A stretch of 64,000 nucleotides of DNA from Naegleria gruberi (taxonomy: Eukaryota), in the NCBI GenBank assembly GCA_000004985.1, contig GG738899.1; one strand, written 5' to 3'. Made by a program: the position numbers and the translations under genes. The notes beneath the pieces are model-generated. The model made no database searches and was not told the DNA's origin. It saw nothing but the letters and a program-made list of their open reading frames with translations. Positions 41,142 through 53,763 of the stretch are shown one piece after another; the first letter of the stretch is position 1, and each line of letters starts with the position of its first letter.

Positions 41142-44100
41142 ATGCTTCCATTTCCGCACAGGTTGTCTTATTTGTGTTTGTTATTTCTCTTCTTGGTACT
41201 CTTTACCCACCACAGCAACACAACAAACACTTTCTATCCTGTTGAATATTCTATGGAAGCAATTGTTGGCAACAGTCCAAATAGTACTTGGCATGCTTTG
41301 GATTACTTCTTCAAAGTAATACCTTCTTTCCGAGAGCCTGATAGATTCATCTACGTTCATGCAGCCAGAATGGGTGATGGTAAATTCAGTCTTCATAAAT
41401 TTGATAAATTAGAAGGAAATTATCAAAATATTGCTCCTGATGTGATGTATTTCACACTTGTTGCTCACATAACAGATGACAACTCTGTCCATGATGTGCT
41501 TTATTATGCTACCGATTCTACATGTACTTTTTACAAGTATAACGAAACAAACAACTCAACCACAAAAATTGCTGGTAATGGAGTTTGTGATACAAATTGC
41601 AATGCACGTGAAAAGCAATATAATGAGAGTCTTTGCAGGGGTTATTTAATGTCTTATCCACATAAATTCAATAATGAGAGTGAATTGTCCTTCTACTTAT
41701 ATGGTGGACAAGAAATTTATCGATTGAAGAATAATTTGGTACAGATTGTGGCAGGTCATGGAAAATCAACTTCCTTAGAAGATCAACCAGCAACAAATGT
41801 TACATTGGGTATATCTGGAACTTGTACCAACTCACTTGGAGAGATTTATATACTACAAAATTATCGAGAAGGAACAGGATATTATATTAGAAAGATTTAT
41901 CCAAATGGTATAATTACTACTGTCCTTTCGTTGATGGGAAATTATGCATATTCTGGTACTTGTTTGTTTGATAGTACTGTTTACGAGGTGGAAAATAAGA
42001 AAATGGTGTTGGATAGGTTATATATTTACGAACATCCAGCATCTACTGTAACAAAGTTTGAGCTTACTTTCGAATATCCAAACACTGGAAAGCCAACATT
42101 GCTTAATTATTCACAAACTACTCTAATTGGAAAATATAACTCTTTTGTACAAGCTGGAGATGGTGGCAAAGCAATCGATGGCAGAATTAGTACTGTAAAT
42201 GTCGACGCTTTTGATGGATTTGTTGCACTTTCTGCTCTGGGTAATGTTAGATTTATTGACAATCAAACTGGAATAATATCAGAGGTACTTTCGGCAAAAG
42301 GACATGGATTTTACACAGCAATTAATAATTTCAAATTCATACCAAAGGATATTATTTACTCTTACAATGAGGGAAATCCAGAAATTCACATAGCTGACCA
42401 TGTCTCATCTTCAATTTTGAAATATTCTTTGAAGAGCAAGAGTATGGAGCCAATGAAAAAGTATTTTATTAGCGATTTGAATAATGCCCCATCTACAGCA
42501 AAACCCTACTCTATGGCATTGGATTCCTATTCTAATTTACTTGTTTCTAATGATTTAAGCTATTGGAGCCCCAACTTTTTAGTTAATATAACCAAACTTG
42601 GACCAAAGGTGATATTTGGACAAAACAAAAAAATTGATGATTCTATTAGTTTGGATTCCTCAATATTGGGTAGGCCCTATTCCAGTTTTTTCATTATGTA
42701 CAATCAGGCGTACTATAGCATAGTTTCAGACAGAGGCAACAATAGACTCTTGCTTATTGACTTTGATGGAAGGAATATTACAACAATAGCTAGTATGAAA
42801 GATGGTATCAATGGACCAACTGGTATTTGCTATCTGAGCGATAGAAGTATGGTGATATTTTCAGATACTGGTAATCACGTCTTGAGATATTACAATATTA
42901 GGACACGTGAATTGGGAATATTTGCTGGAAGATTAGGAAAGAAAGGATTTACTGAAGGTTCTTTGCTCAACGCAACATTCAATCAAGTAAGTTTTAAAAT
43001 GAAACCAAACTAATTATACTAACTCAAAACACAGCCTGTTGGATTATCTTGCACTTTAGATAAAATTCTTGTGGCTGATTCTCATAATCATGCAATCAGA
43101 TTAATCAATATATATGCAAGCACTGTGGAAACTATTGCAGGAACTGGTAAGTGTTTTTGTTACAAAATTAAAGATCTTAATGCTCAATTCAGGAGAGGAA
43201 GGTTTTAATGGAGATTTCTTGGTACCTTTGAGTACTACATTCAATAATCCAATGGGAGTTTGCTTCCAAGAGCGTAATATTATAGTTGCTGACACGAATA
43301 ATCATAGAGTTAGAGTTATTGATGTAAACAACAGATATGTTTCCACAATCGCAGGATCTTTTTTGGATGGAGATAGTGGAGATGAAGGATTGGCCTCAAA
43401 AAGTTTACTCAATTCACCTCATGATGTTCAATATGAAGATAATGTAGTTTATATTGCTGGTATGTTTCAGGTATTTTTTGTTCAAGCTTCTAATCATTTC
43501 AGATTCTGGAAATAACAAAATTAGAGTAATTAAAGACCAAACTATTAGTTCCTTAATAGGGAGAAGTGGTAATTCTGGATTTGAGGGAGATGGAGGTCCT
43601 GGTTTAACAGCAAAGCTCAATTTCCCAACAGGATTGAGTCTTTCTACGAAATATATTGTAATTTCTGATTCAAAGAATAATAGACTTAGATTTTATTTAA
43701 AAGAAGAAAAAACTATTTATACATTAGCGGGTGGTTTTGGAGATAATGGGCCATCTGAGAATGGTATTGGAACACCGTTCGGAGTTACAATCTCTCCAAA
43801 CAATGAAATTTATGTCTCAGATGTGTTGAATAATTTAATTAGACGAATTAAGAATGGAAAAATTACAACAGTAGCAGGTTCTGGAGCATATGGATATAAT
43901 GGCGATGATATTAGTGCATTGAAAGCTTCTTTGGCATCACCTTCGAACATTGTTGTCAATCCTCTAACAAATGACATTATATTTTCAGATACAAACAATC
44001 ATAGAATTCGAATAATTTACAGTGACGGAAATATATCTACATTGGCTGGAACTGGACAAGCAGGTTATAATGGTGATGGAGTGGCTTCAGCTACTCACCT

Positions 44101-46057
44101 CCACTCACCTTCTTTTATCAAATTCATTCCACCACAATTCGAAGTGATAGTTTTTTCTGATTCTGCAAATGGAAGAATACGAAAGATTAGCAAGGTGAAT
44201 AATATTTATATGGTATCGACAATTGCAGGACCTCCTGACTTGATTGGAGTACCTGAGGGATTATCAATTTCAAACGAAGGAGATGTATATTTTGCAGATT
44301 CAAAGAATTTAAGAATTTCAAAACTAATTCCAACCTGTCAACCAGGATATGTACTCAATTTGGAAAAAACAAAGTGTATTCCTATTTGCTATGATATTTC
44401 GGCCCTTGATCCTTCCTCTTGCTCCAGTCATGGAAGTTGCATCGATAGAAACAATTGCCAATGCATGAATGGATATACTGGAAATTCCTGTCAATATTCA
44501 ATCTGTCATGGAATTTCTGGACAAAATATTAGTGTTTGCTCATATTCGGGAACTTGTGTATCTCCAAATAAGTGTGAATGTGTTTCAGGCTATGCTGGAG
44601 ATCAGTGTGAATTACCTACTTGTTTTGGAAAAACTGGAAGAGAGGGTTGTAATAATCGTGGAAAGTGCCATGCTAGAAATTTTTGCATTTGTGAAAATGG
44701 TTATGCAGGAACAACGTGTGAAACAAATGTAATATTGATTGGCTCTCTAGTTGCGGTCTTTGCTGTTGCATTGATTATTATTGGCATTGTGGTGTTAATT
44801 TTAATATTTGTCTTTTCCAAATATAGGAAACAGAAGAAGATTATTGATACCGATCTTACACTGGATGAGAGATTGTTATCACAAACTGAATTGGAAATTA
44901 GCAATACAAGTTCTAATCGTACATATCATCAAGAAGAAGACAAGTTTATCATTCCAATTGAACAATTGAATATGGATAAACCAATTAAAGTAAGTATAGC
45001 AAAGGAAATCAACATTAACAAATTTAACCTATTTTACACAGAGACTTGGAGAAGGAGGAATGGGAAGCGTATTCATGACCAAATATAATGGAATGAAGAT
45101 TGCTGTCAAAGTATTTGATTTGAACAATTTTAACATTTCCGAAGATGATTTCAAGATTGAAGCAATTTTATTAAGCAAGCTTAGACATCCAAACATTATC
45201 AACTTCTATGGCATATCGTCTACACCTACAAAGAGATTCATAGCAATGGAGGTAAGTTTCAATTATTTCCACGAGTGAAAACTGAACTATTTGAAATATA
45301 ATCACAGTGTATGGACAAGAGCTTGGAGTCCATGATTAGTTCACTGCAAAAAGGTACCTCTACATGTTCTCTTAAAATGAAACTATCCATTATTCTAAAT
45401 GTAGTGAGTGGTATCAATTATTTACATCATTTGGAGCCTAATTTTATTATTCATAGGTATGTTTTCACAAAGTGGCCTTTCACAATTTCTTATTGAATTA
45501 TATATAGAGATTTAAAACCAGCAAATATTCTCTTGGATAAAAATGGAATTGCAAAATTGTGTGACTTTGGATTGGGAAGGGCATTATCTTCCAATACAGT
45601 ATCAGCAATCACTAGTAAGGTTGGAACATATAATTATATGTCGCCAGAACTTTTCTCAGATGATATAGAAAGAGGAGATGCTCGATCAATTGATATTTAC
45701 AGTTTAGCCATCATTCTATGGCAACTCGTATTCGAAATTATGGAACCATATCAAAGCTCGGATACAAAAGTTCTTCAAAAATTGAATTTGGAAAAACCAA
45801 AAACCTTTAACAGCACTTATCATTTCCACAAAAGTATCTGTGAAGAGAAATTGAGACCAATTATTCCATTTTCCACATTGGAGGAATGTCGTGAGTGGTG
45901 TGAAAAATTCCTAGACCAAGAACAAGCCAAGTACTATGAGGTAATTTATGAGATGAGTCAATTGATTGAACAATCGTGGAGTCATGAGCCAAGTAAGAGA
46001 CCAACAAGTGTTCAGATTTTGGAAAAGATTGAGGAATGGGATGAACGAGTTTTGTAA
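41142..46057 (+). CDS. NHL-repeat / EGF-like / TM receptor protein kinase, 7 exons. join(41142..42986,43035..43146,43193..43459,43503..44989,45042..45251,45308..45456,45508..46057)
   Basis: Six introns of 48, 46, 43, 52, 56 and 51 nt, all with GTAAGT/GTATGT donors and CAG/TAG acceptors; each removes in-frame stops and joins conserved motifs (IYIA|DSGNNKIRVI; IIH-R|DLKPANIL). Signal peptide, many NHL repeats, four EGF-like modules (CSSHGSCIDRNNCQCMNGYTGNSC ...), TM helix LIGSLVAVFAVALIIIGIVVLILIFVF. Kinase with GEGGMGSVF (G-loop), AVK, HRDLKPAN, DFGLG, YMSPEL. Confidence 0.7.
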
Positions 46058-48563: not shown

Positions 48564-51113
48564 TTACAAATTGAAATGTGGTGTGAACAAGCTCAACAAG
48601 AATGGAATCAAACATAAAATGACCAAAATCAATGGTGTGACTGATGCATTCATTAGAGAAGCACCAGAAGTGGCATTTCTATTCAAAGATCCAGTTGGAA
48701 TTGTTGAATTGTTACCATTATTGTCATTATTTCCAATGGTGGTTTGACATTGAGCTCCAGTATGTTTGGAATCACATGTGCAGGTGTCATTCTTGAGACA
48801 AGTACCAAATCCAGAGCAAACAGTGGCTGAAGTATTTGAAATTCCATAACAAACAACAACTGGTTGACTTGGTTGAGTAATGGTAGTTTCACATTTGGCT
48901 CCAGTATGCTTTGAATCACATGTACAAGTATTGTTTTTGACACAGGTGCCGAATCCAGAACAAACACTTGGTGAACTACTCAAAATTCCATAACAAACAA
49001 TCACTGGTTGAGCAATCACATTTTCACACTTTACACCAGTATGTTTGGAATCACATGTGCAGGTATCATTCTTGAGACAAGTTCCAAATCCAGAGCAAAC
49101 GCTTGGTGATGTGCTCAAAATTCCATAACAGACAATTGGAATGGTATTTTCACATTTAGAGCCTGTGTGAGATGAATCACAAGTACATGTATCATTCTTT
49201 AAACATTTACCAAATCCAGAACAGACAGCAGCTGAAGTATTTGAAATTCCATAACACATAATCACTGGTTGACTTGGTTGAGTGATGGTATTTTCACATT
49301 TGGCTCCAGAATGAGATGCATCACAAGTACATGTATCATTCTTTAAACATTTACCAAATCCAGAACAAACAGCAGCTGAAGTATTGGAAATTCCATAACA
49401 AACAACAACAACTGGTGGGTTATTATTGTTGCTATTCACATTAAAGGATGGAACAACCAATAAACTTGCACTTCTTGCATCCAATGAAACAGTTACCTTA
49501 CCATCAACTGAGCTAGTAGTCAGAGTTTGAGAATTCTTTGAAATAGTTCCAGGAGAAACAAATGTCCAAGTGGTGATGGATTTGCTCTTTCCAACGTCAC
49601 CTGCCAATTGTAAACTAACACTTGAAGCTGAAGTTAACTTGTTCACAAGGACAATGTACAATGTATTTGAGGCAGAGTTGACAAATGAGTAAGCTCCAAC
49701 ACTGTCAACATTTGAACTAGTGGTATTGACATAGGCTCCATTAATGCCAGCTCCCTTTCCGTCATAATTCATTAAAAATTGGAATGATTTCTCAACCATT
49801 GAACCACTTTTTGGAACTGTAAAACGAGTTGCCAAATCAACTCCTTCTCTACCAAAAATGGTTAAAATTTCAACTTGGGCCAAAGCAGAAGACCAAAGAT
49901 TGTCAGCTCCAAAATTATATTCAGTAATGGCCAACTTCAACTCTGGACAATACTTGGCAATGGATGCTTTCATACGTGGAATGAGTGCAACCCTTGAAAG
50001 TGGTCCATTAGATTCAGCATCAGTAATCCAACTTTCATCAACATAATTAAAATCATACAAGCTCTTGACAGTTCTCAAACGAAGATCTGAATTCGTATCT
50101 GCTGTTTGAGTGTCATCATAAATTCCACTTGCTTGTGGATAATAGTGAATATCCAAATAGTCAACCAACAAAATTCCAGTATTCTTCTTATATTCACAAA
50201 CCTTTGTCAAGTAATAATCAATGAGTGGTAAATTGGAATGAGCTTGACGATCAGCACCAGAGGAACAACCATCTGCAGGGGAATAATAATATCCGCAATG
50301 TCCCCATGAATTTGGACCAAATGTCTTGATTGTGGAATCTTCTGTCTTGATTGCTTTGGCATATTTCTCAGTTAAGGTCCACATTTCATCGTAGGTTATT
50401 GGATTTGGATGGACATCATGATGGGTGGAATGCCACAAGTCCATTTCATTATCCAATGACCACAATTTGACAGGTGTTCCTCTACTTTTCATGTATTTGA
50501 TCCAGTTGACTACATAATTTTCATCAATGACTTTTGAAGTTTCTGCTGGATCATTTCCAGTAACATAGATATTACCAGTCTTTTTACCATTACCAGCATC
50601 TCCCATACACCAACTAGGAAAACCAGTTCTAGTACATTCAGTTTCCAATTGACTACCATATTTAGCAACTGAAAAACCCCACTTTTTAGAACGATCATCC
50701 AATGGAGTATAACCAATCAAACTAGCAGTCAGCATCAACTTGGATCCATGCTTATTAGCTGTGTCCATAAACATTGTAGCTGCAGATCCATTCGGCAAAA
50801 TTTGTCCGCTCTCAATTTCGTCTGGAATATTCATGAAAAACCAATCCTGAGCCGTGTTATGAATATTCTGTTGCCAATTATAACGAGTATCTGAATTACC
50901 ACCTTTACGATTGATTGTATATTTAACAGATTGAAAATTGGCTTCTTGTGCGTAGTTGACTCCAAAAATGTCTTGGTTGAGTTGGTTGCCGATTGGGAGG
51001 GAAGAATCAATTTTAACGGTGAGTTGTTGGTGGGTGGGGAAGAGGAGGAAGCAGATGATTGTCAGAAATAACAATCGACATGATGGTGTCAAGAGTTTGT
51101 TGACTAGTGACAT
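48564..51113 (-). CDS. Secreted glycoside hydrolase family 44-like endoglucanase fused to five tandem EGF-like Cys-rich modules, with a C-terminal hydrophobic (GPI-anchor-like) tail
   Basis: ATG at 51113 gives signal peptide MSLVNKLLTPSCRLLFLTIICFLLF. The catalytic-region motifs WSLDNEMDLWHSTHHDVHP and LLVDYLDIHYYPQA match the GH44 pattern (YSLDNEP.LW..THP..HP ... VHWYPE) as I remember it. About 850 aa with no intron. The C-terminus reads ...GNNDNNGNNSTIPTGS...LILVILCLIPFLLSLF. Confidence 0.6.
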   Translation of the reverse strand: MSLVNKLLTPSCRLLFLTIICFLLFPTHQQLTVKIDSSLPIGNQLNQDIFGVNYAQEANFQSVKYTINRKGGNSDTRYNWQQNIHNTAQDWFFMNIPDEIESGQILPNGSAATMFMDTANKHGSKLMLTASLIGYTPLDDRSKKWGFSVAKYGSQLETECTRTGFPSWCMGDAGNGKKTGNIYVTGNDPAETSKVIDENYVVNWIKYMKSRGTPVKLWSLDNEMDLWHSTHHDVHPNPITYDEMWTLTEKYAKAIKTEDSTIKTFGPNSWGHCGYYYSPADGCSSGADRQAHSNLPLIDYYLTKVCEYKKNTGILLVDYLDIHYYPQASGIYDDTQTADTNSDLRLRTVKSLYDFNYVDESWITDAESNGPLSRVALIPRMKASIAKYCPELKLAITEYNFGADNLWSSALAQVEILTIFGREGVDLATRFTVPKSGSMVEKSFQFLMNYDGKGAGINGAYVNTTSSNVDSVGAYSFVNSASNTLYIVLVNKLTSASSVSLQLAGDVGKSKSITTWTFVSPGTISKNSQTLTTSSVDGKVTVSLDARSASLLVVPSFNVNSNNNNPPVVVVCYGISNTSAAVCSGFGKCLKNDTCTCDASHSGAKCENTITQPSQPVIMCYGISNTSAAVCSGFGKCLKNDTCTCDSSHTGSKCENTIPIVCYGILSTSPSVCSGFGTCLKNDTCTCDSKHTGVKCENVIAQPVIVCYGILSSSPSVCSGFGTCVKNNTCTCDSKHTGAKCETTITQPSQPVVVCYGISNTSATVCSGFGTCLKNDTCTCDSKHTGAQCQTTIGNNDNNGNNSTIPTGSLNRNATSGASLMNASVTPLILVILCLIPFLLSLFTPHFNL
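48738..49404. repeat. Five tandem, near-identical 117-144-bp coding repeats, each encoding one EGF-like module (CYGISNTSAAVCSGFGKCLKNDTCTCDxxHxGxKCE...)
   Basis: DNA-level near-identity between units, for example 49201..49285 against 49321..49405. The protein shows five CYGI(S/L)..S..VCSGFG.C.KN.TCTCD units. Confidence 0.6.
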
Positions 51114-51876: not shown

Positions 51877-53763
51877 ATGATGATTCATCGTTTCCTCTTC
51901 CGAAGCAGCAATCCTTTAATATTTTGCATTCTATTCATCCTTGTTACTACTATTTTATTCTCCTCTCATCAAGGTACGATAAATTTTATTTAAATATTAA
52001 TTAATTAAATTAAATTAGCTTATTGTGATGAGAAGAATATTTTGATATTGTCATTACCATTTCCAGGCCATATTCGTCCGAATGTAGAGCTGATGGAATC
52101 CCTTTCAAATTCTCCAACTGTATCGAATATTACTTTGATGACTGTAAAGATTGGAATGATGGCTGATCCTAGATTGAAAAAGTGGTATTCTCAAGTGAAT
52201 GGTACAGACGCAGATAGAAAAGTTCATGTTGCAGTGATGGAGAGTGAGTCATTCTTATCTGAAAGTTCTGATCTTTCATATCTTTACAATGAAATGAGTA
52301 AGATTAGAGATTTGGATGTAATTGACCAATTCAAATTTACTTTCAATAGATTTATGATTCCATACGAACGTTTACTTATTCAAAGTTTGGAAATTGCTGA
52401 AGTTTTAAATGGAAAAGTTATTAATATTGTCCCATTGGAAGAACGTTTACAAAAATTAGCTAAAACTCCCCAAAAAGGTGTCAAGAGATTTATGAGAATT
52501 CGTAATGATCCATCTGAAACTCTATTCGATCAGGCAGTTGTCGATTTTGCTTTGATTTCAATGCAAGCTATCGTTGCTGGAGGAAATATTCCATGCACCA
52601 AGATTTATGCTGCCTACTTTAGACAATTCATGTTCCATTATCCAGCCATTTCGGTTGCTTCGATGGATTATTTCACAACCTACCCAAAGAGATTAATCAT
52701 GCCTTTCAAGGCCCTTAAAGACTTGTTCTTTATTACAGAATACATGGCCGGATTGGGTAGTTATTTTGAAATGGAAGAATTGGGAAAGAGTGATTATTCA
52801 TGTGCCTTGATTCAAACCACCAGTTTTGGATTCGAATATGCTTCAAGTAATGTGCAACAGTTTGGTGCTTTCCTTGTTGGTCCATTCATTAATGATAATC
52901 ACATTGCAAATGAAATTGACCATTTGAAACAATTGGCAGGCACCTCCAACGAAGTTTCCAATAAGTGGACAGAAACTTCTGGCTATGAAGGATTCTTTGA
53001 ATGGGTTGATGAACAACAAGATATCATGCTAATGATTCTTGGATCTACAATGGTTTTAGATGATAATATCATGGCCAAATTGATTAAGGGATTACAAATT
53101 GCCCTCCAAGAAAATCCAAACATTTCCATCATTACTGCATTTGGTCATATTAATATGGATCTTTTTGAAAAGTTGGCACAAACAAATGCTCCACTCGTTC
53201 AATCCGTACTGAACAATAAGAGATTCAAATTATTGAAGGGTTTCGTTCCTCAGAAAGCTTTAATGTCCATCGAGAAGGTCAAAATTTTCTTTACTCACTG
53301 TGGAGCTAACAGTGTAAATGAAGCTCTTTACTTTGGTAAATTGCTGATTGGATTCCCATATGCTTTCGATCAATGGAAGGTAGCTCATACTATTGAAGAA
53401 TTCCAACTTGGACGTGCCATCTATAAATCCAGAGAGGAATCTATGGTATGGAAATCAGAAAGTATTTCACAAGCCATTCACGAATTGCTCTACAATGAAG
53501 AAAAGAGAGAACTCTACAAAACCAAAGCAAGACACACCAAATCTCTCATGAGAAGATCAGGAGGCGTAAAGAGAGCTGCTGAAATTGTCGAAATGGTGTC
53601 GGAAGTTGATGGTGATCTCTCTTGGAAAATTGCAGACAAACACCTCACATGGTGGCAATACTATTGTCTTGATATTGTGTTAGTCTATTCATTCCTCATG
53701 TATCTTGTAGTCAAATTAGCATGCTTGCTTTGTTGCAACAGAAGAAAGGTAAAGAAGGAATAA
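51877..53763 (+). CDS. UDP-glycosyltransferase (GT1 family, animal UGT-like with a C-terminal membrane anchor). join(51877..51973,52019..53763)
   Basis: Exon 1 encodes signal peptide MMIHRFLFRSSNPLIFCILFILVTTILFSSHQ. A 45-nt intron (GTACGA...AAATTAG) leads into ...YCDEKNILILSLPFPGHIRP. The UGT signature is FTHCGANSVNEALYFGKLLIGFPYAFDQ. C-terminal TM helix YCLDIVLVYSFLMYLVVKLACLL and a basic tail. Confidence 0.7.

Follow-up and report, generated by a model that had tools for sequence, protein, structure and literature searches.

A GH44 glycanase of bacterial affinity with an EGF-module stalk in Naegleria gruberi: a probable horizontal acquisition rebuilt as a putative cell-surface protein

The 64,000 nt window analysed here, a stretch of contig GG738899.1 of the Naegleria gruberi assembly GCA_000004985.1, carries on its minus strand an intact open reading frame (ORF) at 48564-51113, which runs over 849 codons plus a stop without interruption and encodes a glycoside hydrolase of family 44 (GH44). 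The best explanation, to which we give a probability of about 0.75, is that the product is a cell-surface retaining enzyme of the endo-beta-1,4-glucanase/xyloglucanase type, whose gene was acquired once from a bacterium, domesticated, and provided with a stalk of epidermal growth factor (EGF)-like modules. Public databases have the same protein, at 100% identity, as an N. gruberi 'predicted protein', NAEGRDRAFT_72666 (XP_002672256.1, UniProt D2VUH6), whose record is a 331 kb scaffold; from this identity it follows that the window is nuclear DNA of this heterolobosean amoeboflagellate. The overall GC content of the window is 34%. Behind a signal peptide at its N-terminus the protein has the GH44 region (aa 42-556) and then five EGF-like modules, and it ends in a spacer rich in Asn, Gly and Ser followed by a hydrophobic C-terminus. 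An earlier note on this DNA, made from the letters alone, had described the same ORF, its motifs, the GH44 region, the EGF modules and the hydrophobic segments at both ends, all of which stand; its description of the neighbouring genes as frequently interrupted does not.

The catalytic domain and its bacterial relatives

The protein is a member of GH44 (clan GH-A), and the assignment is unambiguous by profile, sequence and fold. In the Pfam profile search Glyco_hydro_44 (PF12891) matches aa 85-328 with E=6.8e-69 (232.7 bits against a cut-off of 25.1 bits), and no other glycoside hydrolase family matches the protein; an assignment to a common eukaryotic family did not come out, and the identity proposed in the earlier note is borne out. 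A phmmer search against all PDB chains returns GH44 structures only (E=2e-76 to 1e-38). The best of them is CelM2 (3II1/3FW6, E=2e-76), in which residues 30-533 of a 535-residue chain align with aa 42-556, followed by C. thermocellum Cel44A, the C. acetobutylicum enzyme and Paenibacillus polymyxa XG44. An AlphaFold2 (AF2) model built from 45 homologs has a per-residue confidence (pLDDT) mostly above 85 for aa 30-556, and when this model is compared with the PDB using Foldseek the ten best matches are all GH44 enzymes (CelM2 with a TM score of 0.91 and a root mean square deviation of 2.3-2.5 A). The next families, GH79 and GH51, follow at E of about 1e-19, more than 30 orders of magnitude behind.

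The two motifs that the earlier note had named for the family are both found, LDNEMDLWHSTHHDVHP at aa 220-236 and VDYLDIHYYPQAS at aa 318-330. All 45 GH44s in the alignment keep E223 (LDNE motif) and E398 (AITEYN motif), and both coincide with the same motifs of CelM2. A further 70 positions are invariant across the aligned bacterial and eukaryotic GH44s, and every one of them is retained in the window gene. In PpXG44 the corresponding mechanism is a retaining one, with Glu-187 as the proton donor and Glu-358 as the nucleophile (PMC3190823). Enzymatic activity of the window protein is a prediction from its sequence. Throughout this GH44 subfamily, in bacteria and eukaryotes alike, two pairs of cysteines never vary, C160/C169 (nt about 50607-50636) and C273/C283 (nt about 50265-50297). 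They may be subfamily-specific disulfides; the loop with C160/C169 is deleted in CelM2.

A search covering 5.8 billion proteins, from which the top 120 matches were inspected, places a small set of eukaryotic proteins above the bacterial ones. These are a paralog in N. gruberi, NAEGRDRAFT_66809 (597 aa, 75% identity to the window protein), the orthologs of N. lovaniensis and Willaertia magna (53% identity each), and three environmental sequences, P0004, P0006 and P0007. The contigs of P0006 and P0007 carry eukaryotic genes (CFAP161, WAC/WSD chromatin proteins, Ras, Arf-BTB), have 35% GC and show Naegleria-like codon usage. As the gene adjoining P0006 has its best named matches in Willaertia and Naegleria, the organism behind P0006 is most likely another heterolobosean; P0004 is taken to be eukaryotic, judging from sequence features and its position in the tree. 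All named matches in the top 120 outside this eukaryotic set are bacterial, and the remainder are mostly unnamed metagenomic proteins. The statement in the earlier note that GH44 is known mainly from bacteria fits this picture, with all close relatives outside the small heterolobosean clade being bacterial.

Some features of these relatives may be recorded here. N. fowleri proteins are present in the database, yet no N. fowleri GH44 is among the matches, although N. lovaniensis, its closest relative, does have the gene. This human pathogen may have lost it. P0006 (L001:10001-12127) has at aa 25-135 one copy of a roughly 110-residue N-terminal module with conserved Cys and the motif WWFQF, and P0007 (L002:115-2961) has three copies of it at aa 20-330. 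The module has no match in Pfam and may be an undescribed carbohydrate-binding module (CBM). A gene for a NifS-SelD fusion (cysteine desulfurase and selenophosphate synthetase; L001:1922-4312) adjoins an environmental GH44 gene. Its Willaertia and Naegleria matches have 46-52% identity and its best matches are otherwise bacterial fusions at about 50%, which makes it a second bacterial-looking gene common to heteroloboseans.

In bacterial and archaeal genomes, a scan that was driven by an alignment and covered one genome per species finds at least 594 stretches encoding a GH44 relative (a single-protein query found no bacterial loci). The best bacterial relatives, at 43-50% identity, come from Thermoanaerobaculia and other Acidobacteriota, Candidatus Eisenbacteria and Myxococcota, while those from Paenibacillus and Cohnella have 42% and those from Chloroflexota 37-41% in the same scan. 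Two neighbour-joining (NJ) trees were calculated, one with 86 sequences (487 columns, 300 bootstraps) and one with 192 sequences (499 columns, 100 bootstraps, two distance corrections). The seven eukaryotic GH44s form one clade with 100% bootstrap in both trees, within which the two N. gruberi genes are sisters, again with 100% in both. In the 192-sequence tree the sister of the eukaryotic clade is the sequence P0020 (100%), followed by a group of Acidobacteriota that includes Sulfomarinibacteraceae (64%), and P0020 and the eukaryotic GH44s have two indels near the LDNE motif in common. The contig of P0020 (L083, from Logan SRR28364997) is 2113 bp long with 61% GC and ends in an Illumina adapter, AGATCGGAAGAGCGTCGTGTAG, so that the C-terminus of P0020 is artefactual; at its N-terminus P0020 has a CBM_4_9-like domain, which GH44s of Myxococcota have as well. 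In the 86-sequence tree a pair of metagenome-assembled genomes from Myxococcota/Bdellovibrionales had appeared as the sister group (89%). This position was lost under denser sampling, and for this reason no donor is named.

The eukaryotic GH44s are 47-50% identical to the Acidobacteriota type, 43% to Paenibacillus and 40-44% to Chloroflexota, and in structural alignments the window GH44 is 23-31% identical to the solved enzymes. This unequal distance to the bacterial subgroups favours a nesting of the eukaryotic sequences inside bacterial diversity and, together with the contrast between many bacterial phyla and one eukaryotic clade, makes a transfer from bacterium to eukaryote the parsimonious reading. 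The proposal of the earlier note, a transferred bacterial-type GH44 later fitted with eukaryotic modules, gains from both the bacterial identity of the closest relatives and the monophyly of the eukaryotic ones; that the catalytic region was acquired horizontally from bacteria and was later given eukaryotic targeting and display modules is supported by these sequence comparisons.

Residence in the host genome and the added modules

The transfer is ancient and common to several genera, and the codon usage of the gene is fully host-like. GC content at third codon positions (GC3) is 0.31 in the GH44 part, compared with 0.23-0.33 in the neighbouring genes and 0.80-0.95 in the bacterial relatives. 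The relative synonymous codon usage of the GH44 part correlates with that of the neighbours at 0.81, that of the bacterial genes at about -0.55. The genes flanking it are a cation-efflux transporter with Asn/Gln runs, a UDP-glycosyltransferase, a DUF4116-repeat gene, a gene encoding NHL repeats, EGF modules and a transmembrane (TM) segment (the NHL-EGF-TM gene), and a gene for a RING/B-box/MATH protein. They are eukaryotic, which agrees with the argument of the earlier note that the flanks speak against contamination. The orthologs of N. lovaniensis and Willaertia also lie among eukaryotic genes, in a gene neighbourhood that differs from that of the window. About 4 kb upstream of the N. lovaniensis ortholog there is a GH116 gene (L084:1068-3956, in PYSW02000040.1), and the UDP-glycosyltransferase (52042-53763) adjoins the GH44 gene of the window; both are probably coincidental. 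The ratio of nonsynonymous to synonymous divergence (dN/dS) was computed against an environmental allele (L086) that is 98.5% identical to the paralog NAEGRDRAFT_66809. It is 0.20, with dS of about 1, and hence the duplication is old and both copies are under purifying selection.

The earlier note had also pointed to the lack of introns over 2.5 kb, stating that neighbouring genes are interrupted every few hundred bp. This does not hold, as the genes directly on either side of the GH44 gene are open over 522 and 573 codons with no interruption. In the window there are 21 stop-free stretches of at least 300 codons (the longest has 1268), which cover 61% of it, and the GH44 ORF is the third longest of these. 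As long uninterrupted ORFs are normal in the window, an intron-free gene of this length has no weight as a sign of transfer. The Willaertia magna ortholog (L085:8001-10171, JBEGDK010000001.1) has four GT-AG introns of 80, 66, 52 and 95 nt with a GC content of 5-20%, located after codons 78, 129, 232 and 275, and none of them falls outside the catalytic domain of bacterial descent. In Naegleria and in the environmental sequences the orthologs have no introns, and the restriction of introns to Willaertia suggests that they were gained after the transfer in one lineage.

Strongly hydrophobic segments are found at the two ends of the protein only, at aa 14-25 and aa 826-842. The calls of a signal peptide and of a glycosylphosphatidylinositol (GPI) attachment signal are rule-based, and both agree with what the earlier note had proposed. 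At the N-terminus, a basic n-region (K6/R13) precedes a 12-residue hydrophobic core, LLFLTIICFLLF (aa 14-25, hydropathy 3.18), as in a eukaryotic signal peptide. At the C-terminus, the tail (aa 826-849, hydropathy 3.37) has no K, R, D or E after its core. The scan for omega sites, which looks for small residues at omega and omega+2 located 8-12 aa upstream of a hydrophobic tail, gives S816 and G817 (in SGAS) as candidates; they lie 9-10 residues before the start of the tail at aa 826, with a polar spacer between. For Naegleria genomes in general, evidence of GPI-anchored proteins has been reported (PMC9928731).

Similar ends are found in the other eukaryotic GH44s. A hydrophobic N-terminal segment is present in all seven eukaryotic homologs (7/7), and a hydrophobic, uncharged C-terminus with small residues 8-12 positions upstream in six (6/7); the exception, P0007, has a TM segment with a Lys-rich cytoplasmic tail. 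Among bacterial relatives, P0008 and P0010 were scanned and neither has a hydrophobic C-terminus; in bacterial proteins like P0008-P0010 there is an additional C-terminal domain of about 130 residues. Since these signal and tail features are common to the eukaryotic clade, the signals for export and membrane tethering arose early on, prior to the split of the genera. The region between beta-sandwich and tail differs, with Pro/Ser-rich linkers in the orthologs and almost nothing in the N. gruberi paralog. EGF modules are present in the window gene only within the clade, and thus the stalk is a late addition specific to the NAEGRDRAFT_72666 paralog. A donor of the tail was sought among 151 proteins of the EGF family, where the search gave one weak match (33% over 58 aa). 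The present tail may be the ancestral GH44 tail or may have come with the EGF module.

The five EGF modules (aa 572-606, 620-654, 662-696, 707-741 and 755-789) each have six cysteines in the arrangement C-x10-C-x5-C-x5-C-x-C-x8-C and contain one or two N-x-S/T sequons. EGF_2 (PF07974) matches five stretches with 82.8 bits against a cut-off of 22.1, and EGF_Teneurin (PF23106) matches with 63.3 against 24.3. The C-terminal part of the module fits what we take to be the PROSITE EGF_1-type signature, C-x-C-x5-G-x2-C. At the DNA level, Tandem Repeats Finder (TRF) reports an array with a period of 144/135 nt, five copies and 74-81% matches. The modules are 69-91% identical to one another as protein and at most 47% identical to anything else. 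Between modules, identity is 43-83% at third codon positions and 81-96% at first and second ones, and this greater divergence at third positions fits duplication followed by purifying selection.

A HMMER search of 1.84 billion representative proteins with the stalk as the query gives 1116 relatives, of which 220 have E<=1e-30. Ranking highest are giant proteins, 1,600-7,000 residues long, in which up to 24 stretches match at only 35-47% identity; those with a name are NAEGRDRAFT_51207 of N. gruberi (4968 aa) and A0A7S1KTM9 of Percolomonas cosmopolitus, both heterolobosean. The named ones among the best relatives of the stalk are in other words heterolobosean, and the description of the modules as host-type in the earlier note is apt. 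Only 3.5 kb away in the window itself, the NHL-EGF-TM gene (43454-45088) encodes NHL repeats, three EGF modules of the stalk variant (32-35% identity) and one TM segment. Taken as 43114-45088 on the plus strand, this gene also encodes a cytoplasmic tail and presents a teneurin-like combination of domains in an amoeba; its ORF piece at 43114-43515 overlaps the second piece, which suggests a short intron. In eight of the 151 EGF-family members (8/151) a GPI-like tail directly follows the last EGF module, so an EGF stalk combined with a lipid-anchor signal is a recurring architecture of the host. The exhaustive HMMER search found no near-identical donor module for the stalk. Judging from the module sequences, the stalk was amplified in place by intragenic tandem duplication, starting from one or two captured units of host type. 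The positions of all these features are collected in Table 1.

Table 1. Features of the GH44-EGF gene, as positions in the 64,000 nt window
Feature	Position	Strand	Basis
Complete intron-free coding sequence, NAEGRDRAFT_72666	48564..51113	-	ORF list, identity search
Signal peptide region, about aa 1-29	51027..51113	-	Hydropathy, rule-based only
GH44 (beta/alpha)8 barrel and beta-sandwich, aa 42-556	49446..50990	-	phmmer, Pfam, AF2, Foldseek
Glu223 codon, predicted general acid/base, LDNE motif	50445..50447	-	Invariance, CelM2 alignment
Glu398 codon, predicted catalytic nucleophile, AITEYN motif	49920..49922	-	Invariance, CelM2 alignment
Tandem DNA array, five EGF-like modules with short Pro/Gln/Thr linkers	48734..49416	-	TRF, Pfam EGF_2
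EGF module cores	49296-49400, 49152-49256, 49026-49130, 48891-48995, 48747-48851	-	
Asn/Gly/Ser-rich spacer, candidate GPI omega sites S816/G817 in NATSGAS	48639..48746	-	Rule-based scan
C-terminal hydrophobic tail TPLILVILCLIPFLLSLFTPHFNL, GPI-attachment-type signal or plain membrane anchor	48567..48638	-	Hydropathy

Proposed history and function

The history that we propose begins with a single acquisition of the catalytic region, in an ancestor that Naegleria and Willaertia have in common with related heteroloboseans. Once transferred, the gene would have adopted the codon usage of the host and obtained a signal peptide for the endoplasmic reticulum (ER), and a C-terminal GPI-type signal would have replaced the bacterial C-terminal domain. 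The gene would then have been duplicated in the N. gruberi lineage, and in the window copy only, an EGF module of heterolobosean type would have been inserted between the beta-sandwich and the anchor signal and amplified to five. The protein is expected to enter the ER and to be N-glycosylated and disulfide-bonded there, and a GPI anchor attached around S816/G817 would tether it to the outer leaflet of the plasma membrane and thence also to phagosomes. The glycosylated EGF stalk would keep the catalytic domain off the membrane and the glycocalyx. There E223 as the acid/base and E398 as the nucleophile would cut beta-1,4-glucan backbones with retention of configuration, be it in cellulose, xyloglucan, mixed-linkage glucan or, as in CelM2, also xylan. 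Polymers resembling cellulose or xyloglucan, from prey, from biofilm or from the detritus of plants and algae, would be the most likely substrates, with the amoeba's own cyst wall as an alternative, and the most likely role is to digest such polymers of prey, biofilm or detritus. Tethering makes sense for a phagotroph in water or soil, as a secreted enzyme would otherwise be lost by diffusion.

Several points weigh against this explanation or limit it. The trees are neighbour-joining trees only, with the seven GH44s named above as their eukaryotic members; the sister of the eukaryotic clade shifts with sampling, and support along the backbone is low. P0020 has a higher raw identity to bacteria (51-55%) than to eukaryotes (41-47%), and its grouping with the latter may for this reason be due to long-branch attraction. 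The nearest characterised enzyme, CelM2, is only 31% identical in the structural alignment, so that the substrate is an extrapolation. GPI attachment is predicted by hand-made rules, and the tail could be a plain membrane anchor. Over the stalk (aa 564-830) the pLDDT of the AF2 model is below 50, as the alignment has no depth there, and a rigid spacer is an assumption. In the searchable literature no data on expression, localisation or activity of the window gene were found.

Two other accounts of the origin of the gene have to be weighed. Since the gene is intronless and its family bacterial, one could think of contamination of the assembly, or of a very recent bacterial insertion that is not integrated. 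However, the third-position composition and codon usage resemble those of the neighbours and are opposite to those of the bacterial relatives, the same ORF runs on into heterolobosean-type EGF modules, the flanking genes are eukaryotic, and the public record is a 331 kb scaffold; in addition, the orthologs lie among eukaryotic genes in two other species, in Willaertia with four introns, and dS to the paralog is about 1. On the host-like composition, the eukaryotic flanks, the in-frame EGF fusion and the Willaertia introns, this account can be excluded for practical purposes. Vertical inheritance, with GH44 present in an early eukaryote and lost nearly everywhere except in Heterolobosea, is very improbable, although the clade is clearly old: identities within it (42-56%) are about as low as those to bacteria (45-50%), and the poorly supported NJ backbone leaves room for such a history. 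Against it, each recovered eukaryotic sequence whose source can be assessed points to a heterolobosean, while at least 594 bacterial and archaeal genome stretches across many phyla encode relatives. The unequal distances to bacterial subgroups would not be expected with a root on the eukaryotic branch, and the two indels near LDNE are common to the eukaryotic GH44s and a few bacterial-type sequences.

With regard to function, an outward-facing, membrane-tethered glucanase would also be well placed to act on a wall that lies on the cell surface, and the enzyme might remodel or open a beta-glucan-containing cyst wall of the amoeba at encystment and excystment rather than digest food. Acanthamoeba has cysts with cellulose walls and cellulases that act on them (e.g. 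PMC11945136), but for Naegleria cyst walls no evidence of beta-1,4-glucan was found in the searchable literature, which gave data for Acanthamoeba only, and we regard this role as somewhat unlikely. It is quite unlikely that the protein is mainly a carbohydrate-binding adhesin or receptor for prey or substrates that bear beta-glucan, and not a digestive hydrolase. In favour of such a role, EGF repeats on a membrane tether are characteristic of adhesion and receptor proteins; the stalk itself is most closely related to giant surface proteins with many EGF modules, and nearby lies the NHL-EGF-TM gene with its receptor-like layout. Loss of catalysis is usually accompanied by loss of catalytic residues, and here both catalytic glutamates and the 70 other invariant positions are kept, with a dN/dS of 0.20 that, like the conservation of residues, separates binding from catalysis incompletely. 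A more specific version of the digestive role, which we consider rather doubtful, is that of a contact-dependent feeding tool, a tethered glucanase on a glycosylated stalk at the plasma or phagosome membrane that breaches cellulose-containing walls of prey or the matrix of biofilms. If this were true, algae, oomycetes, cellulose-walled amoeba cysts and bacterial cellulose would be its targets and no enzyme would be lost to the water; the apparent absence of GH44 from N. fowleri would reflect a different ecology, and the protein would be the counterpart, in a eukaryote and as one single protein, of the cellulases that bacteria display on their cell surface.

For a bacterial enzyme turned into a surface-displayed eukaryotic protein, as we read the gene, the stepwise history of how this came about can be read within one small clade. 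The ordered steps would be an ancient transfer, codon amelioration, gain of signal peptide and anchor, gain of introns in one lineage, duplication, and capture and amplification of EGF modules in one copy. GH44, otherwise essentially bacterial, joins the polysaccharide-degrading enzymes of heterolobosean amoebae and becomes a candidate for the handling of beta-glucan walls by free-living Naegleria or for the remodelling of the cyst wall. The architecture of GH44, EGF modules and anchor is unique among the top 120 GH44 matches. The gene and its GH44 domain are already in public databases, where UniProt lists the ortholog from N. lovaniensis as a GH44 domain protein. In the searchable literature nothing relevant was found on the gene, its accessions, GH44 in Naegleria or Naegleria cellulases; the list of transfers in the genome paper may include the gene. 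No general view is changed, because transfer of bacterial carbohydrate-active enzymes (CAZymes) into phagotrophic protists and nematodes is well documented. As a case of a bacterial enzyme that was borrowed and, as we read it, remade into a protein of the cell surface, the gene is tidy but not out of the ordinary.

Comparison with known systems

The closest known enzymes are the bacterial GH44s, such as CelM2 (3FW6/3II1), C. thermocellum Cel44A, P. polymyxa XG44 and the C. acetobutylicum endoglucanase (EG), which have the same profile, the same barrel and beta-sandwich and the same fold as predicted here, and whose NE and TE catalytic motifs are identical in the window protein (PMC3190823). 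Unlike these characterised enzymes, the window protein belongs to a subfamily of the Acidobacteriota/Eisenbacteria/Myxococcota type, in which no characterised member was found, and this subfamily has an extra Cys-containing loop, ECTxxGxxSWC, that CelM2 is without. The accessory parts differ as well, with CBM, FN3 or dockerin modules in bacterial GH44s, and a eukaryotic signal, EGF modules and an anchor in the window protein. Nearest of all are the descendants of the same transferred gene, namely the paralog NAEGRDRAFT_66809, N. lovaniensis C9374_010030 and Willaertia ABK040_005879 (53-75% identity). They have a hydrophobic N-terminal segment and a GPI-like C-terminus as in the window gene, but none of them has EGF modules.

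For the stalk, the nearest counterparts are the giant multi-EGF proteins and the NHL-EGF-TM gene, which have the same six-Cys module (CYGI...C..G.C.....C.C......G..C, 32-47% identity). Some members of the giant family end in a GPI-like tail after the last EGF module; the neighbouring NHL-EGF-TM gene, which is the one that was examined, has no glycoside hydrolase domain, unlike the window gene. The evolutionary pattern is the same as in the GH5 cellulases that nematodes (plant parasites and Pristionchus) acquired horizontally, and in similar CAZymes of protists. In the nematode cases a bacterial hydrolase was given a signal peptide, ameliorated and duplicated, and sometimes it came to bear introns (PMC3032686, PMC8826503, PMC3575306). 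The nematode cellulases are of another glycoside hydrolase family and are secreted and soluble, often with a CBM, whereas the window enzyme, by its GPI-type signal and EGF stalk, is apparently tethered to the membrane.

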